NCBI GenBank assembly: GCA_964606485.1
Contig: CAZSGP010000001.1
Coordinates: 353,085-417,084 of the forward strand
Direction: 5' to 3'
DNA length: 64,000 nucleotides
From: an uncultured Planctomycetia bacterium
GTDB taxonomy: Bacteria; Omnitrophota; Gorgyraeia; 2-02-FULL-51-18
The position numbers were made by a program, and so were the translations under genes. Shown in pieces: positions 2 to 13,681 of this stretch (position 1 is its first letter; each line of letters opens with the position of its first letter). Under the pieces are notes generated by a model. The model worked only from the letters and a program-made list of their open reading frames with translations, did not search any database and was not told where the DNA came from.

Positions 2-337
2 GCCCCTAAGAACGTCGTTCCAGTAGAAAAAAAATTGTTTATAGATTTGATGGACGATCGGCTGGGTTTGGCGGGTGACAATATGCCTGAGAGATTTGAA
101 GGACTTGCCTTTGGGCCCGATTTCAAAGACGGAAGACATTTGCTTTGGGTTACAACGGATAATGATTTTGATGCTGTCGAGCCGACCACTATTTACGCGT
201 TTGCAATACCCCAAGCAGACCTTCCGGAGTACAAGCCGCAAAATTTTTCGAGTGGGGTGCGATGGATGTGGATGGGGTGCTTGGCTTTTTTGGGGTCGAT
301 GGTGTATGTGTTTTTTAAAAAGAGCAAAGATGAATAA
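2..337 (+). CDS. Hypothetical protein, C-terminal fragment (5' end outside window) with C-terminal transmembrane anchor
   Basis: The reading frame is open from the window edge with no upstream stop. A hydrophobic stretch WMWMGCLAFLGSMVYVFF is followed by a basic tail. No recognisable catalytic motif. Confidence 0.35.
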   Translation, partial: APKNVVPVEKKLFIDLMDDRLGLAGDNMPERFEGLAFGPDFKDGRHLLWVTTDNDFDAVEPTTIYAFAIPQADLPEYKPQNFSSGVRWMWMGCLAFLGSMVYVFFKKSKDE

Positions 338-355
338 ACTTTAGATGCTTGTTAT

Positions 356-384
356 TTGACAATCGATATAATATATGCTACTAT
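356..384 (+). promoter_or_regulatory. Candidate sigma70-type promoter (TTGACA-17nt-TACTAT) in AT-rich region upstream of pilin gene
   Basis: TTGACA at 356-361 and TACTAT at 379-384 with a 17 nt spacer, inside a 190 bp AT-rich intergenic region. A strong SD (AAAAGGAGAAAC) lies just before the ATG at 526. The implied 5'UTR would be ~135 nt. Confidence 0.3.
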
Positions 385-525
385 TTGAGTAATAGATGAT
401 AAACCTGTTAAGAACTATTGAAGAGAGAGAATGAACCGCCATCCTAATCATAGAAGGTCCTCTCTTAAACAGTTCCCGGCAGATTTTGGAATATAGGTTT
501 ATTTGTACAACAAAAGGAGAAACAC

Positions 526-897
526 ATGATTAAACGCAATAATAAGCTAGGTTTCACCCTAGTTGAAATTATGATCGTGGTTGCGATCATCGGTCTCTTG
601 GCAGCTATCGCGGTCCCGAACTTCGTTCAGGCTCGTAACAGCGCCCGTTCCAATAGCTGTATCAATAACCTCCGGTTAATTGACGCGGCCAAGGAACAGT
701 ACGCCATCGAAAACAATATCGCCAGCGGTGTGGCCACTAGCTCAACAAGCTGCACGGCTTATCTGAAGAACAACTCGTTCCCAGTTTGCCCGGGGACTAC
801 GACGGCTTATACGACAAACAACATCGGAACCTATCCTTCGTGCGCTATCTCGGGAACGGCTTCGGCCCAGACTCCCAAGAGCCATCGTCTGGATTAA
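526..897 (+). CDS. pilA: Type IV pilin / pseudopilin-like protein with prepilin-type N-terminal cleavage/methylation domain
   Basis: N-terminus MIKRNNKLGFTLVEIMIVVAIIGLLAAIAVP has a short basic leader, G|F cleavage site, Glu at +5 and a hydrophobic helix. The C-terminal half is Ser/Thr/Asn-rich with two Cys pairs (pilin D-region-like). Strong RBS. It lies upstream of pilMNOPQ. Confidence 0.85.
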   Translation: MIKRNNKLGFTLVEIMIVVAIIGLLAAIAVPNFVQARNSARSNSCINNLRLIDAAKEQYAIENNIASGVATSSTSCTAYLKNNSFPVCPGTTTAYTTNNIGTYPSCAISGTASAQTPKSHRLD

Positions 898-916
898 TTC
901 CGCTTTAGTTTAAAAC

Positions 917-2926
917 TTGATCCCCGCCGCTTTGAAACCCAAGGCGGCGGGGATTGTCTTTTTCCTCACCACATTCATTTTCACCGTTTATAGTTTTTCG
1001 CTTGGACATAATTTTTTATTCGACGAAGAGAACATTATCCTATTTAATCCTCTGGTGCGGGATTTGTCACATTGGCCACGAGTGTTTTCGAGCGGCTATT
1101 TCTCTGTTTTAAATCCAGGGGCGTCTCTCGAGTGGTCACAGTACTACCGGCCTCTAACTCTTTTAACCTTTCTTTTAAACTACGCCGTCGGCGGAACCAA
1201 CCCGCTCGGCTACAATCTCGTGAATCTTTTGCTTCACGTTCTTGTCAGCATCGGATTTTACTTCCTACTGGAAAAAATTTTTAAAAATAGAGCCGCTTGT
1301 TTTCTAGGGGCTATGCTTTTTGCGCTTCACCCGGTCCAAACCGAAGCGGTGAGCTATGTGGCTTCGCGGGGAGATCTGATGTGCGCTTTTTTCTTAGTTG
1401 CTTGCCTGCTTTTTTATTGGGAAAAAAAATATACCTTAGCGGTTTTGTGTTATCCGCTGGCTTATTTCTCAAAAGAGGGAGGGCTATTGCTCCCGCTTTA
1501 TCTCATTTTGTTGGACCGAAGCTTCTTTAAAACAAAGTTTAAGGATTTAGGATTTCGAATGATGCCTTATGCGGCGCTCGGGGCGGGCTACCTGATCTTG
1601 CGCCAGTTCTGGGTTTCGGTGCCGCTTGGGCCTGCCGATTCAAATGTGCTGGAAGGTTTAATGCGCGTGTTGTCTATGGGAAACGGTTTGATGAGCTATG
1701 CTCAAGCGATCATCGCTCCTCAGACTTTCAAATTCTGCGAGAGTCTCAATTTTTCATACGGCACCATCCAGCCGGTGATGGTTCTAACTGCTTTATTTTA
1801 CGGAGCGATTTTATTTTTAATGATTCGTCTCTGGAGACGCGGCGGATGGCCTCTGTTCGCGCTGAGCATTCCATGCATCAGTCTTTTACCGGCACTGCAG
1901 TTTGTGGAGATAGCGCCGCACTGGGCCGAACATTATTTGTATCTGACGATGATGGCGCTCGGTTTAGCGCTCGCCGGGGTATTTGCCACTATGAACATTG
2001 CCAAGAAATCGGCCGTTTATTTTTTAGTGCTTTCCATAGTGTTGGGATGGATAGGATTTTTAACTTACCGGACTATTGAGCGCAACCGCTTTTATGCGAG
2101 CCCCCGTATTTTTTATCACCGCCTGATTCTCAGTGACTCGCCGTATGCACATTTTGGTTTCGAAAATCTTGCACGGTACTGGATGGAAAGAAATGAGTGG
2201 GGGAGAGCGCTTGCCTATTTGAGGCCGGCACTTAAAAAATTCCCCGATTATGACAATATTCAGTTTAATGCGGGTCTCTGTGAATCGCGTTTGGGCAGGA
2301 CGAGTCTTGCGATTGAGTATTTCAAAGAAGCTTCCCGGCTAAATCCAAAGCTACCCATGTACTTGATGAATGCGGCCATTTTAGAAAAGCGCAGAGGAAA
2401 CTTTGCGGAGGCCGAAAAACTATTGCTTACGATCGAGCCGCAAATGAAAAATGAAAGTGTTTTTTATAGAAGTCTTGCGTCGGCGCTTGAGTTTTCTGGG
2501 AAGCCCAAAGAAGCTTTGGCGGTGCTTGCTAAAGGTTTGGAGCTGTCGACGCTAACACCAGACACCAAGACAGCGCTTCAAATGGAAATCATTTTGCTGT
2601 CGTTTCGTGAAGGCTGGTTCGAGGATATGAAGCAAAGCGTAAATCAGTTTGCGGTTGAACACAGAGGCGAGGATTGGTATGCGCTTGCCGGTCAACTTTT
2701 GTCGAACGAGATAGGCTTGGAAGAGTACCGCACCCAACTCTCCAGGCGCTATCCCGGCACAGAAGAGGCGAGCTGGCCCTATGTGCTCGCGACACTGACT
2801 CTTAAAAATGATAAGATTGGACTAAGTATTTTTTTGGAGCGCAATGCCAGTCGCATACGGTCCGAGTCTGAGGAGCCGGTTATTGTGGATAAATTTTTGA
2901 TTCAAGCCCGGAAAATTTTAGAATGA
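917..2926 (+). CDS. Membrane GT-C glycosyltransferase homolog of the TMTC / PMT_2 (DUF1736) family with C-terminal TPR repeats (paralog 1)
   Basis: N-terminal ~400 aa are polytopic membrane with the blocks GHNFLFDEENIIL, YYRPLTLLTF, NPLGYNLVNLLLH, VQTEAVSYVASRGDL and HYLYL. The C-terminal ~250 aa contain TPR-like repeats. Start is TTG at 917 (the track's M). The start overlaps a terminator-like hairpin, so the exact start is uncertain. Confidence 0.65.
   Translation: MIPAALKPKAAGIVFFLTTFIFTVYSFSLGHNFLFDEENIILFNPLVRDLSHWPRVFSSGYFSVLNPGASLEWSQYYRPLTLLTFLLNYAVGGTNPLGYNLVNLLLHVLVSIGFYFLLEKIFKNRAACFLGAMLFALHPVQTEAVSYVASRGDLMCAFFLVACLLFYWEKKYTLAVLCYPLAYFSKEGGLLLPLYLILLDRSFFKTKFKDLGFRMMPYAALGAGYLILRQFWVSVPLGPADSNVLEGLMRVLSMGNGLMSYAQAIIAPQTFKFCESLNFSYGTIQPVMVLTALFYGAILFLMIRLWRRGGWPLFALSIPCISLLPALQFVEIAPHWAEHYLYLTMMALGLALAGVFATMNIAKKSAVYFLVLSIVLGWIGFLTYRTIERNRFYASPRIFYHRLILSDSPYAHFGFENLARYWMERNEWGRALAYLRPALKKFPDYDNIQFNAGLCESRLGRTSLAIEYFKEASRLNPKLPMYLMNAAILEKRRGNFAEAEKLLLTIEPQMKNESVFYRSLASALEFSGKPKEALAVLAKGLELSTLTPDTKTALQMEIILLSFREGWFEDMKQSVNQFAVEHRGEDWYALAGQLLSNEIGLEEYRTQLSRRYPGTEEASWPYVLATLTLKNDKIGLSIFLERNASRIRSESEEPVIVDKFLIQARKILE
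919..961 (+). terminator. Intrinsic-terminator-like hairpin (GATCCCCGCCGC ... GCGGCGGGGAT + T-rich tail) just after the pilin gene, overlapping the first codons of the next ORF; possible attenuator
   Basis: An 11 bp perfect GC-rich stem with a 12 nt loop is followed by TTGTCTTTTT. It sits 22 nt after the pilin stop codon. Confidence 0.5.
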
Positions 2927-4956
2927 AAAAACCCGCCTTCCATCTCCACTATCCGCGTGTCACCGCTATCTTTGTTTTAACAATTCTTATTTTTTGTCTG
3001 TACAGTGTTTCGCTAGGACATAATTTTTTATTCGATGAAGATAATATTATTCTTCTAAACCCCCTCTTAAGAGACCTTTCTAATTTTCCGAAGCTTTTTC
3101 AGGTAGGGTTTTTTCAGCGCTTCGCTCCAGGGTCGAGCGTGCTGTGGAATGACTATTACCGGCCGTTGACGCTGGTGAGTTTTGCGCTGGATTGGCAGAT
3201 TTGGGGGTCGAATCCGCTAGGCTACAATCTCGTGAACACCGCGCTTCATTTAACCGTTTGCGCACTTTTATTTTTACTGCTTCATCGGATCACCAAGCAT
3301 ATCGGCGCGGCATTTTTGGGCGCCCTGCTTTTTGGAGTTCACACGATTCACACCGAGGCAGTGACTTACATTGCTTCTCGAAGTGATTTGTTTGGCGGCC
3401 TCTTTGTGATGGCGGCACTCTTGCTGTACTGGAGAGGACGGATGGCGCCGGTTTATGCGCTGTATGCGCTTGCGCCGTTCGCTAAAGAAAGCGGGCTTCT
3501 ACTACCTGTGTACCTTTTTATTTTGGATTTTTGTTTTGTCCGGACAAAGCTTCGGGATTTGGTGCGGCGATTTGCTGGGTTTGCCGTGATCGGTTTGGCG
3601 TACATTGTTTTTCGAAAGTACGGCACGGAAATTCCATTGGGGCCGGGGAGTATTAGTTCTCATGGGGGCCTCTTGCGGTTTTTATCGATGGGGCCGCCGT
3701 TTATCAGTTATCTGCAGGTGCTTTTAGCGCCTGAGGCATTCCGTTATTGCGACGGGATCTCGTTCGCGAAATCCTTTACCGATCATCAAGTGCTGGTTAC
3801 GGCTCAGATCCTTGCGGTTTTGGGGGCGGCTTGGTTTGCGGCGCTCCGGTACCGCGGAAGCGTTTTGTTTGGCCTTTCGATTTTTCTGTTTGCATACTTT
3901 CCAAGTCTGCAGATTATTCATTATTACCCGGAATGGGCTGAGCATTACTTGTATATTCCGCTGATAGGACTCATTATCATGCTTAGCACATTGTTTAAAA
4001 ATATTCTTGAACAGAAAAAAGCGTTTTGGGTGGGACTGCTTTTTTTAATTTACGTGCCCTTTACGGCATTTGTGAGTTTCCGGACGGTTCAGCGCAATCT
4101 GCTTTATAACGATGCTGAAAAGTTTTGCACCGCGCTCTCCCGAAGTCCGTCACCCTATTCGTACTACGGCTATATTAATTTGGCGCGGTTTTTGTGCGAG
4201 AAAGGCAAATGGGAGGAAGCTTACGTCCCGCTTAAGACGGCACTTTTAATTGAGCCGGAGTCAGAAGCCAATCACTACAATATGGCGCTTTACCACACCT
4301 ATAAGAAAAATTACGCCAAGGCCCACGAGTTTTTTAGAAAGGCCTACGATATTGGAAGCCCACAACAGCCCATTTATCTGCTCAACTCCGTGATCGCGCT
4401 CAATCGCTTGGAAAAATATCAAGAGGCGATCGATGAGCTTGAAACCGTCTACCCAAAGGTCAAAAACGAATGGACGGTTTATAAAAACTTCATGCGCTCT
4501 TACGAATTTATGGGAAACCCCAAGAAGGCACTGGAGTGGGGAAATATAGGAATCCAAGAAACCTCGTCAGACGTGTCCAGGCAAGCGGCGGTAATGGTGG
4601 AGATTGTTTCATTGGCTTATCGCCAAGGATGGGATGATGTCCTGACGGAATACTTAGACCAAATGATTCAAAAATTCCCCGATATGCCTTGGTACGCAGA
4701 TTTGGCCTTTTTTCTAAAAGGAAAGGTTTCGGTTGAGGCGTACGAGAAATTAGTGGCCGAGAAGTATTGGCCGTCGATCAAGGAATCACGGCACTATGTG
4801 CTGATGGCCTACGTGCTTCGAAAAGATAGGGCGGGGGCCCAGTCGTACCTCGACCGGTACCGTTCCGAAATCGAAAAGAACTCTAATGATGAAGTTTTGG
4901 TGAATCGAATGTTCGCTCGAGCGGAAAGGTTTTTAGCATCACATCCCGCCAATTAA
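2923..4956 (+). CDS. Membrane GT-C glycosyltransferase homolog of the TMTC / PMT_2 (DUF1736) family with C-terminal TPR repeats (paralog 2)
   Basis: Shares the same conserved blocks and architecture as the upstream gene (GHNFLFDEDNIIL, YYRPLTLVSF, NPLGYNLVNTALH, IHTEAVTYIASRSDL, HYLYI). ATGA overlap with the preceding gene. C-terminal TPR repeats. Confidence 0.7.
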   Translation: MKKPAFHLHYPRVTAIFVLTILIFCLYSVSLGHNFLFDEDNIILLNPLLRDLSNFPKLFQVGFFQRFAPGSSVLWNDYYRPLTLVSFALDWQIWGSNPLGYNLVNTALHLTVCALLFLLLHRITKHIGAAFLGALLFGVHTIHTEAVTYIASRSDLFGGLFVMAALLLYWRGRMAPVYALYALAPFAKESGLLLPVYLFILDFCFVRTKLRDLVRRFAGFAVIGLAYIVFRKYGTEIPLGPGSISSHGGLLRFLSMGPPFISYLQVLLAPEAFRYCDGISFAKSFTDHQVLVTAQILAVLGAAWFAALRYRGSVLFGLSIFLFAYFPSLQIIHYYPEWAEHYLYIPLIGLIIMLSTLFKNILEQKKAFWVGLLFLIYVPFTAFVSFRTVQRNLLYNDAEKFCTALSRSPSPYSYYGYINLARFLCEKGKWEEAYVPLKTALLIEPESEANHYNMALYHTYKKNYAKAHEFFRKAYDIGSPQQPIYLLNSVIALNRLEKYQEAIDELETVYPKVKNEWTVYKNFMRSYEFMGNPKKALEWGNIGIQETSSDVSRQAAVMVEIVSLAYRQGWDDVLTEYLDQMIQKFPDMPWYADLAFFLKGKVSVEAYEKLVAEKYWPSIKESRHYVLMAYVLRKDRAGAQSYLDRYRSEIEKNSNDEVLVNRMFARAERFLASHPAN

Positions 4957-4973
4957 GCGCTGTACTCTTTTTA

Positions 4974-7079
4974 TTGATTGCGGCGCAGTTTATTTATTTC
5001 AGGCTCAGCTTCATTCCATTTTTTAACCGAGACACGGTGCTGATGGGGGACATCAACACCTTTCATTATCTGATCAGCCTTTTCAATGCAGACGCGTACC
5101 GTCATTTTGAGATTCCTTATTGGAACCCGTACATTTTTTCCGGCATGCCTTGGTCCTGCGGCTTGGAAAACAAAGTTTTTTTCCTGCCCGAAATCATCGC
5201 CTCATTTTTTCCAGGGTTTTCCTACGGATTTTTAAAGTTTGAGCTTTTTTTCTTTATCTTCTTGGCAGGTTTAGGTGTGTTCGTGTGGGCTAAAAGCCTG
5301 AACACCTCGAATACCGCCGCTTTTTTTTCGGGAATCAGTTTTATGTCGTCGGGTATTTTTGTGGCCAACGCCGGACATTTTGGGCAGATCGTGGTTTATG
5401 CGCTCTCACCGTGGATTTTTTGGCTTCTTCAAAAGATGGTTGCTGCCCCGGAGCCTCGCTTGGCCATTGGAGCCGCTTTTTGTCTCACACTCGCACTCAC
5501 CGGAGGATACCCGGGCACAGTCATCGTTCTTTTATATCTAATAGGGTTTGTGATGGGGCTCTCGTTTTTTATTTCCAAGCACCCCAAGAAACTTTTTAAA
5601 ATTTATCTACTGTGGGGTTTATTGACCGCAGGTCTTTCAGCGGCTTTTTTACTGCCGGCATTATTCTTTTTTAAAGAGACGGTTCGCCATAACCTGACCC
5701 TTAGTTTCAAAACGATTGTGACGGAGCATGCGCTCGCGCCCGCCAATCTCTTATCTTTGCTTGCCCCAAGCCTTGCCACAAACACCCATTTTTTAGACTC
5801 CATCCCAGACGCCAATATTCTAATGAGCAATGTCTATATGGGAGCACTGGCTCTGCCCTGTGCGGCGGCCGCTTTTTTTTGGGATAAAAAACGCAGGCGC
5901 TTGATCATGATTATAATTTTTATTTCTTTGTTTTGCCTTCTTGCGGCGATGGGCGCACACACCCCGGTGAGACCCTGGATGTTTCATGCGTGGCCGTTGA
6001 TGGACAAAATCCGTCTGAGCTCATCCATTTTCAGAGGATTTTTTCTTCTCGGTTTTTGTCTCTTGGCCGGTTTCGGAGTGGATGCATTGATGGAGCTCAA
6101 AAACAGCTTTAAAAAATTCGGAATGCCTCTTATTTATGCTGTCGCCGGATTTTTAATTTTGAAATGGACTGTGAGTGGATCGGCGGTGTGGCCGGAAGTT
6201 TTGGGAGAATGGCACCACAGTCTTTTGATACTTTGTTTTTTTTGGCTCATTTTATTGGCTCTCGAGAGAAAAATTGTCGGGAAAACTGTATTTTTTCTGC
6301 TTGTCAGCGTGCTTTTAGTGGCCGACTTTTCTTACGCAGTCTCCAAAAATGATGCGGTGCTTTGGCAAAAGAACCCCGCGGCACTGGAGTGGATTGAGAG
6401 CCTTCAAAGTCAGAGAGACCGTTCATTTTCGGGCCTTCAAAATTTTCACCGCGAAAAAAAATATCCGCTAGATGATAATCTCACCCCTTTATTTTTTAGA
6501 GTGCGCTCCGATGGGGGATTTTTGGGGGGAGACGGAGGGGCTCAGCTTTTTTCATACGCGCAATTTATGAAAACGAAGGCGCACCGCATTTTAACCGATG
6601 GGCCGCAGGCTTGGTTTCTTTCGAAATTATGCCACCGGCAAAACGGGGAAGAGGTTTTGCGGGAGTTGGACCGTGATGATTTGAATCCGGAGGAGACAGG
6701 TTTCATTGTATTCAACTCAGACAAAAAAACAGAATACTCTTACCAAAAATCGCCGGAGCAAAGTTTTCGTATTTTAAAATATGGACTAAATAAAATTGTA
6801 TTTCAATATTCTTCACCGAACGAATGCTATCTTGTGTTAAACGAAGTGTATGACGATTCCTGGCGCGCGCGCTTCAAATCTAGCGGCCAAAGAATTCCCG
6901 TCGAGCGGGTAGACGCCATTTTGCGCGGCATGACTTTGCCAAAAGGGGAGGCTGTGATTGAGATGAGTTACGATCCGCCGATTCAAAAGGTCGGGATTTG
7001 GATGTCTTTAGCCACGCTCGCGGGCTTACTTGCCTTCTTTTTGTCAAATTTCAAAGGGCTGAGGCTAAAAAATGTTTGA
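4974..7079 (+). CDS. YfhO-like polytopic membrane protein (GT-C-type glycosyltransferase family) with C-terminal extracytoplasmic domain
   Basis: More than 12 predicted TM helices in the N-terminal 450 aa. C-terminal soluble domain ends with the YfhO-type motif VLNEVYDDSWRARFKSSGQRIPVERVDAILRGMTLPKGEAVIEM and a terminal TM helix. TTG start. Confidence 0.5.
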   Translation: MIAAQFIYFRLSFIPFFNRDTVLMGDINTFHYLISLFNADAYRHFEIPYWNPYIFSGMPWSCGLENKVFFLPEIIASFFPGFSYGFLKFELFFFIFLAGLGVFVWAKSLNTSNTAAFFSGISFMSSGIFVANAGHFGQIVVYALSPWIFWLLQKMVAAPEPRLAIGAAFCLTLALTGGYPGTVIVLLYLIGFVMGLSFFISKHPKKLFKIYLLWGLLTAGLSAAFLLPALFFFKETVRHNLTLSFKTIVTEHALAPANLLSLLAPSLATNTHFLDSIPDANILMSNVYMGALALPCAAAAFFWDKKRRRLIMIIIFISLFCLLAAMGAHTPVRPWMFHAWPLMDKIRLSSSIFRGFFLLGFCLLAGFGVDALMELKNSFKKFGMPLIYAVAGFLILKWTVSGSAVWPEVLGEWHHSLLILCFFWLILLALERKIVGKTVFFLLVSVLLVADFSYAVSKNDAVLWQKNPAALEWIESLQSQRDRSFSGLQNFHREKKYPLDDNLTPLFFRVRSDGGFLGGDGGAQLFSYAQFMKTKAHRILTDGPQAWFLSKLCHRQNGEEVLRELDRDDLNPEETGFIVFNSDKKTEYSYQKSPEQSFRILKYGLNKIVFQYSSPNECYLVLNEVYDDSWRARFKSSGQRIPVERVDAILRGMTLPKGEAVIEMSYDPPIQKVGIWMSLATLAGLLAFFLSNFKGLRLKNV

Positions 7080-7138
7080 AAGAATTAAGAAATTATTGCT
7101 AAACTATAGATAAGAGTTGGAACAAAAGGATAAAATTA

Positions 7139-8209
7139 TTGAAGAGATCTAAACAGAGCACCGTGGTTGGGCTAGACATCGGTGTTTCGTCCGTGAAGCG
7201 CGTTGACATTATCCGTGAGGACAAGTCGATACGTCTTGAGCGGGTCAGCGTTCTTCCTTTAGCAGATCCCACACCGGAAGCCCTTAAAAAGGTTCTAAGA
7301 ACTCTTTTCGAACCGCCAAAAGGCGTTTCACCGAAGGCCGCTAAAAAATTATTCAAACATGTCCGAATTTCGATTACAGGCCCATCTATTTTGATTCGCA
7401 GAGTGACGCTCCCCTTGATGAGTCGGATTGAATTAAAGGGTGCTATTCGGTTTGAAGCCGAAAACCATGTCCCGTTTCCGATTGACGACTGCGCTCTTGA
7501 TTTTCAAATTCTTAGCGAAAGCATCCCCGAAAAAACGATGAGTGTGTTGCTAGTAGCCGCCAAAAAAGATTACATCGAAGAGCGTTTACGGATCTTGTCA
7601 GAATTTTATATTTTCCCCGAACTTGTCGACGTGGATATTTTTTGCCTTGCGAATGCGTTTGAAATTTTAGGGGAAAGAAGCGAGCATAAAACATATGGCC
7701 TTATGAATATTGGTCATGAATCCACGTCCTTCACGATTATTCGTGATAAACAACCCTACTACGTCCGCGATGTGAGTCTTGGCAGTAAAGAAATTACGAA
7801 GTTTATTATGGAAACGAAGGGTATGGACGAAGCTCAGGCGGAAGAATTTAAAACCACCCGGCCAGCCGCCGATGCGCTGACAAATCCGGAGACGCTGGAC
7901 GCCTTAAAGACGGCCACTCAAAAAGGGTATGAAGCGCTGACAGAGGAAATCCGTACGTCCATTAGTTACTATGAAGAAGAGGTGGGTGAATCACTAGCTC
8001 AAATCTGGATGAGCGGCGGCGGGTCCATGGCTCACGGCGCGGCAGAGGTTTTTGCGGAAGCGCTCGGAAAATCGGTCCAAACTTGGGACAACACCAAAAA
8101 ACTTGAAATATTCAAAGATGTGGACCAGGCGTTTTTGACGAGCCGCGCCCCCGAGCTCAATATTGCGCTCGGGTTAGCTCTGCGCGATTTGACGGGGTCA
8201 TCGTCATGA
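7139..8209 (+). CDS. pilM: Type IV pilus assembly ATPase-fold protein PilM
   Basis: N-terminus VVGLDIGVSSVKRV (actin-like fold) and PilM-like length and order, followed by pilN/O/P/Q. TTG start with an upstream AAAAGGA. Confidence 0.85.
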   Translation: MKRSKQSTVVGLDIGVSSVKRVDIIREDKSIRLERVSVLPLADPTPEALKKVLRTLFEPPKGVSPKAAKKLFKHVRISITGPSILIRRVTLPLMSRIELKGAIRFEAENHVPFPIDDCALDFQILSESIPEKTMSVLLVAAKKDYIEERLRILSEFYIFPELVDVDIFCLANAFEILGERSEHKTYGLMNIGHESTSFTIIRDKQPYYVRDVSLGSKEITKFIMETKGMDEAQAEEFKTTRPAADALTNPETLDALKTATQKGYEALTEEIRTSISYYEEEVGESLAQIWMSGGGSMAHGAAEVFAEALGKSVQTWDNTKKLEIFKDVDQAFLTSRAPELNIALGLALRDLTGSSS

Positions 8210-8835
8210 TTCTTGTCAACCTCCTCCCGGAAAATTTACGGTTGTCCGGCGAAAGTAAGTGGAAGTTTTTACAAAACCCGCTTATTAAAGGGGTTCTTTC
8301 AATTGTTGTTCTGTTTCTGGCCGGACAAATCTTTTTGACAATCTTTGCCGGTTACCGTTTCGCGGAATTGGGGCTGGTTAAAAAGCAGGTTGCAGATTTA
8401 ACGGAGATGAGCAAGGGGTTGTCGGCGCGCAAGACTCAAATTGCGGATTTAAATCTAAAGTTGAAAGCGATTGACGCCTTAACGCAGCGAACATTTTTCT
8501 GGTCCTCTTTTTTAAATGGAATGAATCAATGTCTGACAAAGGGAATTTGGTTGACGGGTTTCTCTATAGGGGATGGCCCTACATCCGGAGCCGTGGGTAG
8601 AGACAAGAAGCCTTCGAAGCCTGCAAAGGTGCTAAAACTTGAGGGGAGCGCGGTGGCGCCTCCCGGTCAAGAAACAGCGTATGTTGCCCGTTTTATCAAG
8701 GAGCTTAAAAGCGGTCTGGTTCTAGGTGAGTTGTTTGAAAAGGCGGAGCTCTTAACGATTAATCAGAAGAGAATCAAAGATGTGGATGTTTACGATTTTG
8801 TCGTCAACTGCACCTTCAAGAAGGATAAGTTTTAA
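8206..8835 (+). CDS. pilN: Type IV pilus assembly protein PilN
   Basis: N-terminus ILVNLLPE matches the INLLP motif. Single TM, coiled-coil region and a periplasmic domain. ATGA overlap with pilM. Confidence 0.7.
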   Translation: MILVNLLPENLRLSGESKWKFLQNPLIKGVLSIVVLFLAGQIFLTIFAGYRFAELGLVKKQVADLTEMSKGLSARKTQIADLNLKLKAIDALTQRTFFWSSFLNGMNQCLTKGIWLTGFSIGDGPTSGAVGRDKKPSKPAKVLKLEGSAVAPPGQETAYVARFIKELKSGLVLGELFEKAELLTINQKRIKDVDVYDFVVNCTFKKDKF

Positions 8836-9470
8836 TGGCGTTGCCAATTAAAGAGCTGATCATTGGTTTTGTGAACACCAAAAAAACCGCTTTGATAAAC
8901 GTTATCAGCAACAGACCAGACAAAGAAAAGCAATTGATTGTGATTGTTTTCCTGGCGGCGTTTTTAGCGATCGATTACTTTTTGCTGGTGAAGCCATGCA
9001 TTGATTATTTGTACAAGAATACTCCGGAAATTGCCTCTCTGAAAAGTCGTTTGGATGAAATGCGGCAGGATCAGAAAAATAAAGCGCTGATTGAAAAAAA
9101 TTGGAAAGACACCGCATTGGAGTTAGAAACACGAGAGAAAATGTTTATCTCGCCGAACGAGATTCCGGCGTTAATCGAAAATCTTTCCAAGACAGCTTCG
9201 GATTCCCGCGTAAAAATTTTATCGCTCCAGCCGGTAGAAGCGGCGCGCAAAGAGGATAAAAAGGATTCGAAAGACGAGCATCTGCCGATTCCGATTAAAA
9301 TAGACGGCTTAGCCGGAGCCCATGAACTCGGGAGTTTTTTGGCGAGACTCGAATCAGGCGAGACGTTTATCCGCATTACGGATATGAGAATTAACTCCAA
9401 TCCTCAGGATTCGCACCGCCATTTAATTGGATTGGATATTGAGGCGTATAAAAAGGCGGGCACGTCATGA
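8835..9470 (+). CDS. pilO: Type IV pilus assembly protein PilO
   Basis: Bitopic membrane protein with a coiled coil and a periplasmic domain, at the PilO position in the operon. Stop/start overlap with pilN. Confidence 0.6.
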   Translation: MALPIKELIIGFVNTKKTALINVISNRPDKEKQLIVIVFLAAFLAIDYFLLVKPCIDYLYKNTPEIASLKSRLDEMRQDQKNKALIEKNWKDTALELETREKMFISPNEIPALIENLSKTASDSRVKILSLQPVEAARKEDKKDSKDEHLPIPIKIDGLAGAHELGSFLARLESGETFIRITDMRINSNPQDSHRHLIGLDIEAYKKAGTS

Positions 9471-9871
9471 CGAGGCGTACCTTTTTATGGATTCTTTTGG
9501 TTTCATTTGATATGATTTTTTTGGTTCCAAGCGCTCTTGCCGATAAAGCAGGGTACGACCCAGGCGGGCGCCGCGACCCTTTTGTTCCGCTTGTAACATT
9601 GACCACCAAAGAATCGACGGGGCTGATGGGTGTGGAGAGTCTGGAAGATCTCCATTTGGAAGGGGTAGTTTTTGACCCCAAAAATGGCTCCATGGTTGTC
9701 GCCAATAATGTGGTTCTAAAAGAGGGTGAAACCAACGGTCCGGTCAAAGTTTTAAAAATTAAGGCCGACGGGGCTTATTTCTCTATCAATGGGATCGAGG
9801 GTTTTAAGCCCTCTTATGAAGAGAAGCCGCAGGGCAGTTCTAAAAGTAGTTCAAAAAAGGAGCGTAAGTGA
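9467..9871 (+). CDS. pilP: Type IV pilus assembly lipoprotein PilP-like
   Basis: Small protein with a signal peptide, at the PilP position. Overlapping start/stop codons with both neighbours. Confidence 0.5.
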   Translation: MTRRTFLWILLVSFDMIFLVPSALADKAGYDPGGRRDPFVPLVTLTTKESTGLMGVESLEDLHLEGVVFDPKNGSMVVANNVVLKEGETNGPVKVLKIKADGAYFSINGIEGFKPSYEEKPQGSSKSSSKKERK

Positions 9872-11412
9872 AGCAATTTAGAATTGCCGCAAGTGCTTGC
9901 TTGAGCGTTCTCTTCCTTCTCCAGCCTAGTTTTTTAGCCTATTCCGCCGATAGCGAATCCCAAGAGCAAAGCGCCGCAATTTCTTCTGAAAATCCCTCTC
10001 CGGCGGAGTCGCAAGTTCCTTTGAGCACAGAGCCTATCTCTCCAGAATCTTCAGAGAGCGAAAGAACTGAGGATGCAAGCGCTTCGGAATCGTCAGCGCC
10101 TGAAGTTTCGGCAACCGGCAATGTCACCGTTGATTTTAAAGATGCAGACATTCAAAATGTACTGCGAATCATTTCTTTCAAAAGCGGTGTGAACATTGTT
10201 GCCGGAAGTGATGTGACGGGACAAGTGACGATTCGCCTGGTGGACGTCCCGTGGGAAAAAGCGTTGGATGTGGTGCTAAAGACGTATGGATTTGCCTACG
10301 AGAAAGATGGAAACATTATCCGTGTCACCACACTCGACTCCCTCAAAAAGGGAGATTTGTCGACCGAGGTTTATACGCTCAATTACGCAACGGCTTCTGA
10401 AGTCGTGGCCGCGCTGAAGGATATTTTAAGCGAACGCGGTAAAGCGCAAGCCGATACGCGGTCGAACTCTGTGGTGGTGACCGATATGCCAACGGTTCTC
10501 GCGCAAACAAAGAAAGTCATTGAGCGCTTGGACAAGGGCCCGGCTCAGGTGATGATTAATTCAAAGATTATTGAAACCACTTTGGGTTCTGCGGATCGTT
10601 TGGGGATTCGATGGGGCACGCAGGTAACGCTGGGAGGCTCTCGCCGTCCGACTTCGTTTCCATTTCCAGCCACTCAAAGAACGGCGATCCGACGCTTCTT
10701 ACCGCCAGGTCAACAGAGTTTGGAGGTTACCGATGGAGCGGGCGGAACGGCGGATAACGCCATATTTCCAGCCGGTGGTGCTGCTGAAAATATTCAGCCT
10801 ACTTTTCCGCTGACCGGTGCAGACCAGTTTACGTTTGGAACGCTTGATTTTACGCAGTTTCAGGCGGTTTTAGAAGCGATTCAAACCCGTGATAATTCAA
10901 AGATTCTTTCGGAGCCGCATGTGATTGTGATGAATAATCAGGAGGCTAGAGTGACGGTGGGTGACACGATTGCCATCCCAAACTTCGAACGCAACTCAAC
11001 CACGGGACGAATGGAAATTACAGGATACAGAGATCGCGCGGTGGGCATTACGCTGATCGTGACGCCGCAGATCAACAGCGCCAACGAGATTGTTTTAACC
11101 ATCAATCCGTCGGTGACAACGCTTTTAGGTTATGACACGCTGGCAACAGACATCGTGGCCCCTCACTTTACCAATCGAGAGGCGAAGACTCAGATTCGAA
11201 TTAAGGACGGCGAAACCGTCGCTATTGGAGGATTGATTAAAGACAATACCACTACTGCAGTTACAAAAGTTCCGATTTTAGGGGATCTACCCATTGCGGG
11301 GAAGCTTTTTAAGTTTAAAAATAAGACCGGTGATAAAACCGATCTTTTATTTTTTATGACCGTGCATATTCTCACGGACAAACAAGCTGCTCCGCAAGGG
11401 CATAAAATGTGA
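9868..11412 (+). CDS. pilQ: Type IV pilus secretin PilQ
   Basis: Signal peptide, a Ser/Glu-rich low-complexity linker and N0-like domains. Secretin C-domain reads PILGDLPIAGKLFKFKNKTGDKTDLLFFMTVHIL. GTG start. Confidence 0.85.
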   Translation: MKQFRIAASACLSVLFLLQPSFLAYSADSESQEQSAAISSENPSPAESQVPLSTEPISPESSESERTEDASASESSAPEVSATGNVTVDFKDADIQNVLRIISFKSGVNIVAGSDVTGQVTIRLVDVPWEKALDVVLKTYGFAYEKDGNIIRVTTLDSLKKGDLSTEVYTLNYATASEVVAALKDILSERGKAQADTRSNSVVVTDMPTVLAQTKKVIERLDKGPAQVMINSKIIETTLGSADRLGIRWGTQVTLGGSRRPTSFPFPATQRTAIRRFLPPGQQSLEVTDGAGGTADNAIFPAGGAAENIQPTFPLTGADQFTFGTLDFTQFQAVLEAIQTRDNSKILSEPHVIVMNNQEARVTVGDTIAIPNFERNSTTGRMEITGYRDRAVGITLIVTPQINSANEIVLTINPSVTTLLGYDTLATDIVAPHFTNREAKTQIRIKDGETVAIGGLIKDNTTTAVTKVPILGDLPIAGKLFKFKNKTGDKTDLLFFMTVHILTDKQAAPQGHKM

Positions 11413-11458
11413 TTTTCGCGGCTGCGACTCTATTTTCGCAGCTGATTTGAAATTTTAA

Positions 11459-11502
11459 ACACATCAACTCCGTAATCGGGTGACGTTGATGTGTTTTTTT
11501 TA
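11459..11502 (+). terminator. Rho-independent terminator after pilQ
   Basis: ACACATCAAC and GTTGATGTGT form a perfect 10 bp stem around a 16 nt loop, followed by T8. Confidence 0.65.
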
Positions 11503-11520
11503 TTTTCAGGAGAAAAAGAA

Positions 11521-13080
11521 ATGTCTAGAAAAGAAATTTTAGTGAATGTTGAGTTTCAAGAAAAAAAAGTTTGTGTGATCGAAGACGGTCACTTGGAAGA
11601 GTATTACGTCGAGCGCCACAGTGACCGGCAACTCGTCGGCTCCATTTTTAAAGGCAAGGTCAGTTCAATTGTACCGGGAATTGGTGCGGCGTTTATTGAT
11701 TTGGGACTAGAAAAGAACGGCTTTTTGTATGTTTCCGACGTGGTGGGGCAGGGTGTACTTGACTCCGAAGAAGAGGTTTACGTCGAGAATGCCGAAAAGC
11801 AGGAAGAAAAATTAGAGCGTCGTCCGGGTCGCCGGGATAAGAACGAGCCGATGGTCCAGATTCAGGATGTCTTAAAGAAGGATCAAGAAGTTCTGGTTCA
11901 GGTCGTGAAGGAGCCGTTTGGCACGAAGGGCGCGCGTCTGACTTGTCAGGTCTCCTTAGCGGGGCGTTTCGTGGTGTTTATGCCGCATCACCCGCATGTG
12001 GGAATTTCTAAGCGCATTGACGACCGCAAAGAGCGCGAGCGCATTCGCCAGATCATTAAAAGTGTGGATCTGCCGAAGGACTCCGGCCTCATTGTCCGCA
12101 CGGCGGCGTGGGGTTGTGACGCGAAGGTGCTCGAGCGAGACATTAAGTTTTTGGTGCATCAGTGGAGAGTGATCCAACGCCGCTGCACGCTTAAAAAGGC
12201 ACCGGATATCGTTCATGAAGAATACGGACTTGTACTCCGCATGGTGCGCGACGTGCTCACCGAAAATTTTGAACGCATCGTCATCAACGATAAAGACGAG
12301 TTTAAGAATGTAGATCGTTTTATGCGGGCCGCAGTCCCCAATTTACGCCCGAAGCTTGCTCATTACTCCGGAGATGTTCCAATCTTTTTGGCACATGGCG
12401 TTCAAAAAGACATTGACCGGATTTATGAGCCTAAAGCGAGTTTAAAGAGTGGCGGACATATCGTCATTGACCAGACGGAAGCGCTGGTTGCCATCGACGT
12501 GAACACCGGGAAATTCACCGGAACGCGCAATCTCGAAGAGACGGCGTTTCGCACCAATTGCGAAGCCGCGCGTGAAATTGCTAAGCAAATTCGGTTGAGA
12601 GACTTGGGTGGAATCATCATCATTGATTTCATCGACATGGATTTGTCGGAACATCGTCGTTCGGTTTTAAGAATTTTAGAAGACTCGCTCCGCAAGGATC
12701 GCGCTAAAACAAGTGTGCTCAACTTGTCGCAACTTGGCTTAGTCGAAATGACGCGTCAACGCATGCGTAAGAGCTTGGAAGGCGCCTCCACTCAGAACTG
12801 CCCGTATTGTCAGGGCAAGGGTGTTGTGAAGTCCAAGGAAACAGTTGCGAGCGAAGCGCTTCACAAGGTCACGGCGTTTTTAAAGAATATGAAAAAAGAG
12901 CATGTCGAAGTGACGGTGACTCCTGAAGTCATTGAAGTTTTGACGCGCGAAAATAGCAAGATGATCCGCGGGATTGAAACGCAGTCCCAGAACCGGATTA
13001 GCCTCGTCGCGGATCCGCATTTGCATGTGGAAGAAGTCCGGATTAAGAGGTTGCTTGACAAGCGAAAAAAGCTATGGTAG
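11521..13080 (+). CDS. rng: Ribonuclease G/E family endoribonuclease (Rne/Rng)
   Basis: N-terminus MSRKEILVNVEFQEKKVCVIEDGHLEEYYVE and S1 domain FKGKVSSIVPGIGAAFIDLG. DNase-I-like catalytic region, Zn-link CPYCQGKG. The ATG at 11521 is preceded by GGAGAAAAAG. The track ORF start at 11491 lies inside the terminator. Confidence 0.85.
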   Translation: MSRKEILVNVEFQEKKVCVIEDGHLEEYYVERHSDRQLVGSIFKGKVSSIVPGIGAAFIDLGLEKNGFLYVSDVVGQGVLDSEEEVYVENAEKQEEKLERRPGRRDKNEPMVQIQDVLKKDQEVLVQVVKEPFGTKGARLTCQVSLAGRFVVFMPHHPHVGISKRIDDRKERERIRQIIKSVDLPKDSGLIVRTAAWGCDAKVLERDIKFLVHQWRVIQRRCTLKKAPDIVHEEYGLVLRMVRDVLTENFERIVINDKDEFKNVDRFMRAAVPNLRPKLAHYSGDVPIFLAHGVQKDIDRIYEPKASLKSGGHIVIDQTEALVAIDVNTGKFTGTRNLEETAFRTNCEAAREIAKQIRLRDLGGIIIIDFIDMDLSEHRRSVLRILEDSLRKDRAKTSVLNLSQLGLVEMTRQRMRKSLEGASTQNCPYCQGKGVVKSKETVASEALHKVTAFLKNMKKEHVEVTVTPEVIEVLTRENSKMIRGIETQSQNRISLVADPHLHVEEVRIKRLLDKRKKLW

Positions 13081-13108
13081 CCTTGCATCTCTTTTAGGGG
13101 AAAATTTT

Positions 13109-13426
13109 ATGATAGCAGTGATTCAGACCGGTGGAAAACAGTACAAAGTGAAGGCGGGCGACGAGCTTCATGTCGAGCGTCTAGAGACCGGCAAAAGCAA
13201 AACATTGAAATTTGAGAAAGTGCTTTTAGTTTCCAAAGACGGTGCGGCTCAGTTTGGCAAACCTTTCTTAAAAGGCGCCTACTGCGAAGCCGAGATTTTG
13301 GCTGAAGAGAAGGGACCGAAAGTCATTTCCTTCAAGTATATCCGCCGCGAAAAGGCAGCGACCAAGATCGGACATCGCCAGAAGTATTTGAAAGTTAAAA
13401 TCAAATCCATTCACGCAGGATCTTAA
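13109..13426 (+). CDS. rplU: 50S ribosomal protein L21
   Basis: [25 protein letters not shown] matches the canonical L21 N-terminus. The internal ATG was chosen; the track ORF upstream extension overlaps rng. Confidence 0.9.
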
Positions 13427-13432
13427 ACCACT

Positions 13433-13681
13433 ATGGCACATAAAAAGGGTCTAGGTAGTTCAAAAAACGGGCGCGATTCTAATTCTAAACGCCGCGGCGT
13501 CAAAGCGTACGGCGGGGAATTTGTTTCAGCTGGAAGCATTATCATCCGTCAAAAAGGTTCACGCTTTTTTCCGGGTTTGAACGTTTCTCAGGGCCGTGAC
13601 TACACTTTATTTGCCCTCAAAGACGGCGTGGTTAGTTTTAAGCCAACCAATCGGGTTCACGTTATCCCCTCTGCAAGTTAA
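13433..13681 (+). CDS. rpmA: 50S ribosomal protein L27
   Basis: [40 protein letters not shown] matches L27. Confidence 0.95.

Follow-up and report, generated by a model that had tools for sequence, protein, structure and literature searches.

TfpW of Pseudomonas aeruginosa is the closest described counterpart of the genes analysed here. It is a GT-C protein of 646 aa with 11 predicted transmembrane (TM) helices, a periplasmic TPR domain, and a DDX motif in loop 1, and the best template for its model was ArnT (bioRxiv 10.1101/2020.04.19.049825). The tfpW gene lies immediately downstream of pilA and is needed for pilin O-glycosylation. The enzyme modifies Ser/Thr of the pilin at multiple sites from a polyprenyl-phosphate-sugar donor, and the sugar is D-arabinofuranose. 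TfpW is found in the group IV strains (Pa5196/PA7), with homologs in other Proteobacteria (bioRxiv 10.1101/2020.04.19.049825).

Related architectures occur outside pilus systems. The eukaryotic cadherin O-mannosyltransferases TMTC1-4 (GT105, DUF1736) combine an 11-TM GT-C domain with an extracytoplasmic TPR domain, and their acceptors are folded protein domains outside the cytoplasm (PMC7801869). Their motifs M1-M7 (Eisenhaber et al. 2021) were explained as sites for metal, phosphate, and sugar (PMC7801869). In the YfhO family, PgtC2 of S. pyogenes and S. pneumoniae and PgfM1/PgfM2 of S. mutans use Und-P-sugar donors to place Glc or HexNAc on extracytoplasmic Ser/Thr-rich protein regions, and the pgf genes cluster with the genes of their adhesin substrates (PMC12041528). 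The YfhO enzymes of B. subtilis and Listeria are described as having teichoic acids as acceptor (PMC5836110). The PMT/GT39 enzymes include yeast Pmt1/2/4, actinobacterial Pmt, and Cbes_1864 of C. bescii, a GT39 gene which adjoins that of its substrate.

Type IVa pili are almost universal in Omnitrophota and are thought to serve host or prey attachment; the study describing them makes no mention of glycosylation (PMC10066038). Literature searches for pilin combined with TMTC, PMT_2, or O-mannosyltransferase brought up no specific report. The original prediction placed TfpW in other families and considered a PMT/TMTC-like route of pilin glycosylation undescribed. This novelty was overstated. TfpW has been published with the same architecture and gene position, and YfhO-family protein O-glycosylation is also a known precedent. 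Likewise, YfhO proteins had been taken as teichoic-acid enzymes, a view that is too narrow given PgtC2 and PgfM1/M2 (PMC12041528).

The pilin and its locus

The window, i.e., the whole 64-kb stretch of DNA analysed, contains the locus at 526-11412 on the + strand. The gene order is as predicted, at the same coordinates and on the same strand: a prepilin gene, TMTC_A, TMTC_B, and a YfhO-like gene, followed by pilMNOPQ. Minor-pilin genes lie on one side of this candidate cassette and pilMNOPQ on the other. According to Pfam and NCBIfam, pilMNOPQ (7139-11412, +) is a type IVa pilus alignment and secretin module. It consists of pilM (7139-8209; Pfam PilM_2 1.3e-47, NCBIfam pilM 8e-51), pilN (8206-8835; Pfam PilN 1.8e-3, under the gathering cut-off), pilO (8835-9470; Pfam PilO 2.4e-8), a pilP-like fourth gene (9467-9871), and the secretin gene pilQ (9868-11412; Pfam Secretin 2.1e-43, NCBIfam PilQ 3.8e-80). 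This order is kept in seven related loci, with RNase G next.

The major type IV pilin (526..897, +) has 123 aa. Both the prepilin leader and the Ser/Thr-heavy C-terminal half claimed for it were recovered: Pfam N_methyl matches at 1.7e-8, and Ser and Thr make up 33% of the last 61 residues. The leader reads MIKRNNKLG/FTLVEIM, leaving a mature protein of 114 aa with four Cys, and the NCBIfam models PilA, GspG, and ComGC match the N-terminal helix only. Pilin orthologs from 13 related genomes are 50-81% identical. In 10 of the orthologs, Ser and Thr account for 22-35% of the C-terminal part versus 8-13% of the N-terminal half. Ser/Thr-rich C-termini are frequent among pilins and are not diagnostic.

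A sigma-70-like promoter candidate (356..384, +) lies upstream of the pilin gene, from which the major pilin would be transcribed separately. It reads TTGACA-17-TACTAT with an extended -10 TG, matches at 10 of 12 positions, and is the top-scoring promoter-like site at 300-13500. The scan of this region gave 19 sites versus 14.6 expected by chance, and the candidate is to be read as a consensus match only.

The pilin gene is followed by an intrinsic-terminator-like hairpin (918..966, +), which starts 21 nt past the pilin stop and covers both candidate start codons of TMTC_A. It has a 17-bp stem (10 GC pairs) and a 5-nt loop, followed by TCTTTTTCCT, and was the highest-ranked terminator-like site of the scan. 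The roughly 113 nt from the pilin stop codon onward, hairpin included, fold at -34.2 kcal/mol. Nine relatives (L001, L005, L006, L010, L011, L012, L014, L015, and L016) have a comparable GC-rich hairpin, with a T-run but of different sequence, just past the pilin stop. The same post-pilin terminator-like hairpin was described in Pseudomonas pilin-accessory cassettes (PMC11841053). The hairpin is probably an attenuator setting the ratio of pilin to accessory genes, and it would let only a fraction of the transcripts reach the latter. Alternatively, a terminator at this position could place the GT-C genes in one transcriptional unit with pilMNOPQ, which counts against a pilin-accessory cassette.

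Fold, motifs, and family of the GT-C proteins

TMTC_A (917..2926, +) encodes a GT-C protein of 669 aa with a C-terminal periplasmic TPR domain; in the deposited annotation it starts at TTG 932 and has 664 aa. TMTC_B (2923..4956, +) encodes 677 aa and is the pilin-adjacent GT-C protein with TPR that is conserved across the phylum. The two genes are joined by a 4-nt ATGA overlap, and the proteins are 37% identical over their full length, with C-terminal TPRs in both. The model of TMTC_B (pLDDT 95, DSSP) shows 11 membrane helices, loop helices, and 18 helices, or about nine TPR-like hairpins, at 398-672. The TPR Pfam matches, at 417-548 in TMTC_A, bear out the repeat domain. An arrangement of 11 TM helices followed by an extracytoplasmic TPR domain is that of TMTC. 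The fold is that of the GT-C superfamily (ArnT, PMT, STT3/PglB, ALG, Aft), and an acidic F-D-E-(E/D) motif, as expected for the GT-C acidic loop, directly follows TM1 in periplasmic loop 1.

The motif strings quoted for the GT-C proteins were all found. As to the DE dyad, D38 is invariant across 18 homologs with identities down to 22%, and distant homologs have DD. The other invariant residues of the TMTC_B type are R80, P81, H140, E189, P270, and P327, while Y79, K188, Y263, and E340 are kept in at least 90% of the sequences, homologs of 22-29% identity included. These residues fall on the TMTC motifs M1, M2, M3, M4, and M7 (ERxxY in TMTC1-4, EHxxY here). TMTC_A retains D36/E37, Y76-R78-P79, R151/D153, K186/E187, and E338-H339.

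This pattern bears on whether the conserved protein could be a pilus-assembly factor, with the TPRs as a PilF/PilW/Tgl-like pilotin or scaffold and the polytopic domain as an anchor. A weak NCBIfam type_IV_pilW match (9.6e-7, far under the cut-off) agrees with such a role, as does the fact that no separate pilF or pilW gene was seen on inspection of the window. A pure anchor would, however, lose residues at GT-C catalytic and donor-binding loop positions, and these are the invariant ones. Moreover, similarity between TPR domains is generic, with equal scores for OGT, Rap, and designed TPR proteins, and gene adjacency tracks the pilin, not pilQ. An assembly factor is very unlikely.

Family placement was less direct. 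For the transmembrane domains of TMTC_A and TMTC_B, Pfam gave no match at a threshold as loose as E<=10, PMT_2 (PF13231), DUF1736 (PF08409), and PMT included, and direct placement in PMT_2 or DUF1736 was rejected. PMT_2 matches only 5 of the 55 homologs aligned, and two distant homologs are recorded with PF08409. Thus, the label PMT_2/DUF1736-like rests on transitive homology, fold, and motifs. A search of solved structures with the full-length protein gave TPR matches only, and a profile of the N-domain had no sequence-level match to solved GT-C structures. The family was therefore assigned by fold and motifs. Of the predicted TMTC/PMT_2-like character with TPR tails, the TPRs stand, but PF08409 and PF13231 do not match.

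PMT/GT39 enzymes share the loop-1 D-E catalytic pair and the Ser/Thr acceptors. In contrast, TMTC_A and TMTC_B have neither a MIR nor a PMT Pfam domain; their extracytoplasmic module is an all-helical TPR domain in place of MIR. A PMT-with-MIR assignment was dropped on this domain content, and the terms PMT-type and mannose used in the original prediction are unproven. A PglL/TfpO-type assignment was dropped as well, since none of the three proteins has a Wzy_C/O-antigen ligase match in Pfam or NCBIfam. PglL and PilO (TfpO) are Wzy_C/O-antigen-ligase-type enzymes, which transfer preassembled Und-PP-oligosaccharides en bloc. They resemble the present case in the periplasmic O-glycosylation of pilin Ser/Thr and in the position of tfpO directly after pilA, but differ in fold and donor chemistry.

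With TMTC1-4, the pair shares M2 (YRP), M3 ((S/G)RxD), M4 (KE), M7 (E(H/R)xxY), and the loop-1 acidic pair. Differences are M1, which is DE and not DD, the motifs M5 (DW) and M6 (PxxP), which were not seen, the lack of a DUF1736/PMT_2 match, and the donors, dolichyl in TMTC1-4 versus bacterial polyprenyl in the putative enzymes here. It is conceivable, though unlikely, that the pilin-linked enzymes are of a true bacterial TMTC lineage distinct from TfpW, with TPRs that recognise the small folded pilin domain and with three cooperating GT-Cs. If true, it would be the first time that a TMTC-type system of a prokaryote had its protein substrate defined genetically. TMTC_A, TMTC_B, and the YfhO-like protein would then build a multi-site or multi-sugar coat in the periplasm from lipid-phosphate monosaccharide donors only.

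Judged by its published description, TfpW shares several features with the pair. These are a length of about 650 aa, a cytoplasmic N-terminus, 11 TM helices (predicted for TfpW), an acidic loop-1 motif, an ArnT-like fold, and a large C-terminal periplasmic TPR domain with OGT as best match. Furthermore, the gene follows the pilin gene with a hairpin in between, here in the window and 13 genomes, with the hairpin in nine. Of the YX6PFX7P motif of periplasmic loop 4, only the Y263-x6-P270 half is present; residue 271 is Phe in some homologs only, and a second Pro at +8 is lacking. TfpW of the group IV strains was reportedly studied by Kus et al. in 2008. TfpW belongs to Gamma- and Betaproteobacteria and has DDX, whereas the present proteins come from Omnitrophota and have D-E-(E/D). 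Also, no D-Araf biosynthesis genes lie near the cassette, and the tfpX position is not occupied, as TMTC_B, the YfhO-like gene, and pilM come next. Finally, the gene is duplicated here and accompanied by a YfhO-family GT-C, and the cassette lies between the minor-pilin genes and pilMNOPQ.

The third gene (4974..7079, +) encodes a YfhO-family GT-C protein of 701 aa whose C-terminal beta-sandwich domain is accompanied by a terminal TM helix. The YfhO type claimed for it was borne out by Pfam YfhO (PF09586), at 38.2 bits versus a cut-off of 28.5, with only the C-terminal 127 residues matched; PF09586 is present on all 42 detected homologs. The model has a GT-C fold, resembling STT3B (16.7), Pmt4 (16.3), and PglB (16.1), and D26 is nearly invariant among homologs. 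Folds and loop-1 acidic residues thus support the claim of three GT-C enzymes. The start codon is uncertain and the N-terminus questionable: the canonical TTG start leaves only half of TM1, while the frame is open from about 4890 and encodes the full TM1, with ATC as the sole possible start codon there. No database protein is more than 34% identical to this YfhO-like protein. Its two nearest homologs (34% and 25%) have methyltransferase/radical-SAM genes and housekeeping genes, respectively, as neighbours and are not pilus-linked. PgtC2 and the PgfM proteins share the family and fold, but they are Gram-positive enzymes with a pathway-encoded GtrB-type synthase, whereas this gene is orphan-like and not conserved at pilus loci.

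Conservation at Omnitrophota pilin loci

In 13 other species-level genomes, a pilin gene lies directly upstream of one TMTC_B-type gene, while the remaining neighbours vary. The recurrence of pilin-adjacent TMTC-like genes in relatives, suggested as a check, was therefore found, and it argues against chance adjacency. A second pilin gene lies downstream of the TMTC_B ortholog in two loci (L002, L007). Family members of an Omnitrophota sister clade (L009, L019) show no pilin linkage.

The proposal of three GT-Cs as a dedicated pilin module holds for TMTC_B; it does not extend to TMTC_A and the YfhO-like gene, which are not conserved at the locus. That two of the three genes are not conserved there counts against a dedicated cassette. 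All locus orthologs are closer to TMTC_B than to TMTC_A, and the best database match of TMTC_A besides itself is its neighbour TMTC_B, which indicates local duplication. TMTC_A is a lineage-specific paralog of TMTC_B. The YfhO-like gene had no tblastn match in any related pilin locus. As a conserved pilus partner it was rejected, given the lack of a counterpart and the unrelated contexts of its homologs, and it is a lineage-specific addition to the locus.

It is rather improbable that the TPR-GT-Cs are active on another envelope protein, such as the PilQ N-terminal linker, the minor pilins, or a broad periplasmic set. Residues 26-84 or so of PilQ form a low-complexity stretch rich in Ser/Glu/Pro, and PMT and YfhO-type enzymes favour segments of this kind (PMC12041528). 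The TMTC_B-type gene adjoins pilMNOPQ in eight loci, and one MAG (L008) has a second paralog between pilC and four minor-pilin-like genes. In addition, most distant members of the family, which counts 144,551 cluster representatives, have no pilus neighbours. Against these points, the pilin is the sole constant neighbour. In L005 and L016, pilB/pilC lie upstream and a plsX-like gene or another membrane protein gene downstream in place of pilMNOPQ, and the pilin gene still directly precedes the TMTC_B ortholog. The hairpin-separated layout of pilin and accessory genes also resembles pilin-specific systems.

The acceptor could also be non-protein, i.e., lipid A, LPS core, or another surface glycopolymer, with the location among pilus genes incidental. 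This is how ArnT and the YfhO enzymes of teichoic acids act (for YfhO, as described in PMC5836110), and a weak NCBIfam match to cell surface glycopolymer formation was found (1.5e-4, under the cut-off). The unlinked homologs of the YfhO-like gene point in the same direction, and such an acceptor is more plausible for that gene alone than for TMTC_B. Nonetheless, the pilin adjacency in 13 genomes would be hard to account for, and among GT-C families a big periplasmic TPR domain is typical of the protein-modifying TMTC/TfpW and is not mentioned in the ArnT description. For the locus as a whole, a non-protein acceptor is quite improbable.

Concerning the donor, no polyprenyl-phosphate-sugar synthase or flippase was apparent among the window ORFs (by eye) or in the 7.6 kb upstream. 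In the same region, ORF inspection and precomputed Pfam matches, on which the whole donor-gene search was based, revealed no D-Araf (DprE1/DprE2-type) pathway that stood out. In distant members of the family, the neighbouring genes are GT2, GT2, and DUF2304, an arrangement that would fit polyprenyl-phosphate-sugar donors and lends them indirect support.

Proposed function and significance

Since one GT-C with a TPR domain shows a tight and specific linkage to the pilin gene across Omnitrophota, pilus-dedicated glycosylation is the best reading. The locus is probably, though far from certainly, a TfpW-like pilin-accessory O-glycosylation cassette within a type IVa pilus super-operon. [quoted passage not shown] The unassembled pilin would be held in the inner membrane by its N-terminal helix, and its small globular domain would face the periplasm, where the TPR domain may dock it. 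The GT-C domain would then move single sugars from a polyprenyl-phosphate-sugar donor to Ser/Thr of the C-terminal half of the pilin. Enzyme duplication and the YfhO-family GT-C may provide this lineage with extra sites, a second sugar, or glycan extension. A likely benefit would be a masked or diversified pilus surface, which could serve defence against phages or the recognition of hosts or prey.

In many species a glycosyltransferase gene separates the pilin gene from pilM, which suggests routine sugar-coating of the pili. If true, this would bear on phage resistance, on host recognition, and on predictions of conductive pili made from sequence only. It would also mean that the TfpW-type system, reported so far for a handful of Proteobacteria, reaches a distant uncultivated phylum. 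Through motifs and architecture, the cassette ties this system to the huge TPR-GT-C family of which the animal TMTC O-mannosyltransferases are members. With the genes of enzyme and substrate side by side, it may offer a tractable model for how TPRs choose a folded acceptor protein.

Pilus locus and gene layout

All genes of the locus are encoded on the plus strand. A 123-aa prepilin with a prepilin methylation motif recognised by Pfam/NCBIfam (526-897) is followed by two large membrane proteins, TMTC_A (669 aa, 917-2926) and TMTC_B (677 aa, 2923-4956), a YfhO-like membrane protein (701 aa, 4974-7079), pilM, pilN, pilO, a pilP-like gene and pilQ (7139-11412), and RNase G after pilQ. PilM, PilO and the PilQ secretin were confirmed with Pfam/NCBIfam, and PilN gave a weak match (1.8e-3) below the gathering cut-off. 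Every peptide string quoted in the original prediction was found in the window. Its description of the gene products also held: TPR repeats lie in the C-terminal third of both paralogs (Pfam, NCBIfam), which are 37% identical end to end, and the YfhO match of the third gene exceeds the curated cut-off. The 7.6 kb lying 5' of the window, available from a second assembly that includes this locus (L033), encode three minor-pilin-like proteins, a DUF7305 protein resembling PilX and a phytase-like protein. Together with the prepilin and pilMNOPQ, the minor-pilin-like genes therefore make the locus part of a type IVa pilus super-operon.

Several features of these neighbours were recorded. Two minor-pilin-like genes are arranged in tandem upstream of the window start (L033 3124-4208); their products (188 and 173 aa) bear long C-terminal poly-Asp tails, one of which is followed by HGHGHG. 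The third minor pilin (204 aa) and the PilX-like DUF7305 protein (428 aa) come after them. The phytase-like protein (425 aa; PF13449, 3e-64), which starts with a signal peptide and has a membrane helix at its C-terminus, is encoded after the minor pilins and ahead of the major pilin (full gene L033 6138-7415; 3' end at window 35-337).

A 17-bp GC-rich hairpin with a T-run begins 21 nt 3' of the pilin stop and spans both candidate start codons of TMTC_A. Equivalent hairpins, unlike in sequence, are found 3' of the pilin in nine related loci. This layout matches the description of Pseudomonas pilin-accessory cassettes, in which a Rho-independent terminator after pilA attenuates accessory gene expression (PMC11841053). 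In the mature pilin (114 aa), the N-terminal half hardly changes from ortholog to ortholog, and the C-terminal part is variable. In each of the ten orthologs analysed, Ser and Thr make up 22-35% of the C-terminal part versus 8-13% of the N-terminal half. One Cys pair is conserved.

Family placement of TMTC_A and TMTC_B

The transmembrane domains of TMTC_A and TMTC_B had no Pfam match, even at E<=10, and a profile of the N-terminal domain matched no solved structure by sequence, so the PMT_2/DUF1736 label first given to them fails the direct HMM test. The broader assignment stood, however, and both proteins can be placed firmly in the GT-C superfamily, near the TMTC/PMT_2 group. A homology search returned about 60 Omnitrophota homologs with 35-44% identity across the N-terminal domain and, beyond these, hundreds of TPR proteins (E 1e-29 to 1e-19), some of which carry PF13231 or PF08409 and the JGI name 'protein O-mannosyl-transferase'. 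Among the aligned family members, 5 of 55 had a PMT_2 match. An exhaustive profile search (E<=1e-3) yielded 144,551 cluster representatives; the TPR-GT-C family is thus very large. PMT proper was excluded because both the MIR domain and a PMT match were absent, and PglL/TfpO because a Wzy_C-type match was not returned.

Seven residues (D38, R80, P81, H140, E189, P270 and P327) are invariant down to 22% identity, and K188, Y79, Y263 and E340 are kept in at least 90% of homolog sequences. The conserved residues fall on the TMTC motifs M1, M2 (YRP), M3 (RxD), M4 (KE) and M7 (ERxxY), which Eisenhaber et al. interpreted as sites for metal, phosphate and sugar (PMC7801869). M1 is an acidic pair in loop 1, DE in the window proteins and DD in distant homologs, and M7 reads EHxxY in the window proteins versus ERxxY in TMTC; motifs M5 and M6 were absent from the window proteins in this comparison. 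Since the N-terminus is basic and the number of helices odd, the TPR domain is predicted to be periplasmic. Such a domain might serve a mainly structural role, similar to that of PilF/PilW, but the invariant catalytic positions speak against this explanation, which we regard as improbable.

Conservation of the pilin neighbourhood

One genome per GTDB species was scanned, and 27 loci were returned. In 13 species-level genomes, a single TPR-GT-C gene is located directly 3' of the pilin (L001, L002, L004, L005, L006, L007, L010, L011, L012, L014, L015 with L013, L016 and L017). The linked pilins are 50-81% identical to that of the window, or 38-44% in L002. The pilin/GT-C adjacency thus recurs for one TPR-GT-C gene but not for the YfhO-like gene, which has no counterpart at the related pilin-linked loci. 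The orthologs are all nearer to TMTC_B than to TMTC_A, and the best database match of TMTC_A is TMTC_B; TMTC_A is therefore a local duplicate. A tandem TPR-GT-C pair is also present in L003.

Downstream of the TPR-GT-C gene, eight loci contain pilMNOPQ and RNase G. In L005 and L016, pilC, or pilB and pilC, are upstream and unrelated genes downstream, and L002 and L007 have a second pilin downstream. A second paralog, 36% identical to TMTC_B (L008 36-4689), has a pilC fragment on one side and, on the other, a run of four pilin-like genes that belong to another type. L008 and L010 come from the same MAG, which means that one genome has two pilin-linked copies. As the other neighbours vary among loci, the pilin is the constant partner of the TPR-GT-C gene. 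Another T4P or envelope protein could be the acceptor, for example PilQ, whose residues ~26-84 (window ~9943-10120) are Ser/Glu/Pro-rich, of low complexity and unalignable with orthologs. Judging from its composition, this stretch is a possible alternative O-glycosylation target, yet we consider an acceptor other than the pilin unlikely, if slightly less so than the structural role.

An Omnitrophota sister clade lacks a pilin neighbour (L009 473-2440, L019 9950-11947; 33-35% identical to TMTC_B, 31-32% to TMTC_A); in both of its loci the conserved neighbour is instead an FNR-like oxidoreductase gene, read from the other strand. Distant homologs (Acidobacteriota, Nitrospina and others) have no pilin linkage, and several are flanked by GT2, GT2, DUF2304 and GT4 genes, the usual company of enzymes using polyprenyl-phosphate sugars. 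In Bryobacterales and Acidobacteriota, the homolog is preceded by a GT2 gene, or two of them, and by the gene of a small membrane protein with DUF2304 (L025 7805-12669, L027 733-5592, L021 7188-9864), with a GT4 gene 3' of it in L025; L027 was compared with L025 by ORF arrangement, which is the same. The GT2/DUF2304 layout is reminiscent of three-component modules that glycosylate from lipid-phosphate sugars.

L013 and L015, two contigs from a MAG that bears the label Candidatus Eisenbacteria, appear to be halves of one locus: L015 stops inside the N-terminus of the TPR-GT-C, and L013 picks up this gene near residue 167. With 81% identity to the window's, the pilin of this locus is the nearest relative found. 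Several MAG labels (Planctomycetia, Eisenbacteria) conflict with the Omnitrophota affiliation of the closest homologs.

The YfhO-like gene and the proposed pilin glycosylation

The nearest homologs of the YfhO-like protein occur in contexts unrelated to a pilus locus. Its ORF begins at a TTG, giving half of the first membrane helix compared to homologs (window 4890-4974). The frame stays open for about 84 nt farther upstream, where ...ITSRQLSAVLFLL gives a complete TM1. Only a non-canonical ATC (~4938), which overlaps the 3' end of TMTC_B, could act as a start there. This anomaly could stem from an atypical start codon, from a misassembly or from truncation at the 5' end. In L016, a 504-aa polytopic membrane protein follows the TPR-GT-C gene (11946-13460; 37-nt gene overlap). 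It is without a Pfam match, has an 'HHEIWRDEG' segment directly after the first helix, and may be a further GT-C-like partner, comparable to the window's YfhO-like protein.

The original prediction described YfhO proteins as enzymes that glycosylate teichoic acids, but the family is not confined to these acceptors: PgtC2 and PgfM1/M2 O-glycosylate Ser/Thr-rich extracytoplasmic protein segments, and pgf genes cluster with the genes of their adhesin substrates (PMC12041528). In C. bescii, a GT39 gene adjoins the gene of its substrate. A non-protein acceptor fits the YfhO-like gene, taken by itself, better; for the locus it seems as improbable as the structural role.

The original prediction counted TfpW of Pseudomonas aeruginosa among other families and called the route undescribed. 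Both views overlook the published description of TfpW: a TPR-bearing GT-C encoded after pilA and glycosylating the pilin is a known concept, and the published TfpW has the same length, topology and position. In TfpW (646 aa, 11 predicted TM helices), periplasmic loop 1 carries the GT-C motif DDX and loop 4 carries YX6PFX7P. Its large periplasmic TPR domain has OGT as best match, and the best template of TfpW is ArnT. Its gene lies directly 3' of pilA and is needed for D-arabinofuranose O-glycosylation at several pilin Ser/Thr (bioRxiv 10.1101/2020.04.19.049825). Going by this description only, the window proteins share the length, topology, acidic loop-1 motif, OGT-like TPR domain and gene position, and they keep the Y-x6-P half of the loop-4 motif in the equivalent loop.

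Overall, the locus is rather likely to be a TfpW-like pilin-accessory system that glycosylates the pilin. The analysis establishes the folds, motifs, synteny and hairpin; enzymatic activity, acceptor, donor and benefit are what we infer here. Read-through beyond the hairpin would yield the inner-membrane GT-C enzymes at a low level. Their periplasmic TPR domain would dock the globular part of the membrane-anchored pilin, and the GT-C domain would move single sugars from a polyprenyl-phosphate donor to pilin Ser/Thr before assembly. In this lineage, the duplicated enzyme and the YfhO-type enzyme might add more sites, a second sugar or glycan extension.

The main Omnitrophota survey describes T4aP as near-universal and leaves glycosylation unmentioned (PMC10066038). 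What is new is that a phylum which is distant, uncultivated and host-associated keeps a pilin-linked TPR-GT-C within its T4aP operon, that the motifs of this enzyme clearly tie it to the TMTC family, and that three GT-C enzymes are stacked in a lineage-specific manner.
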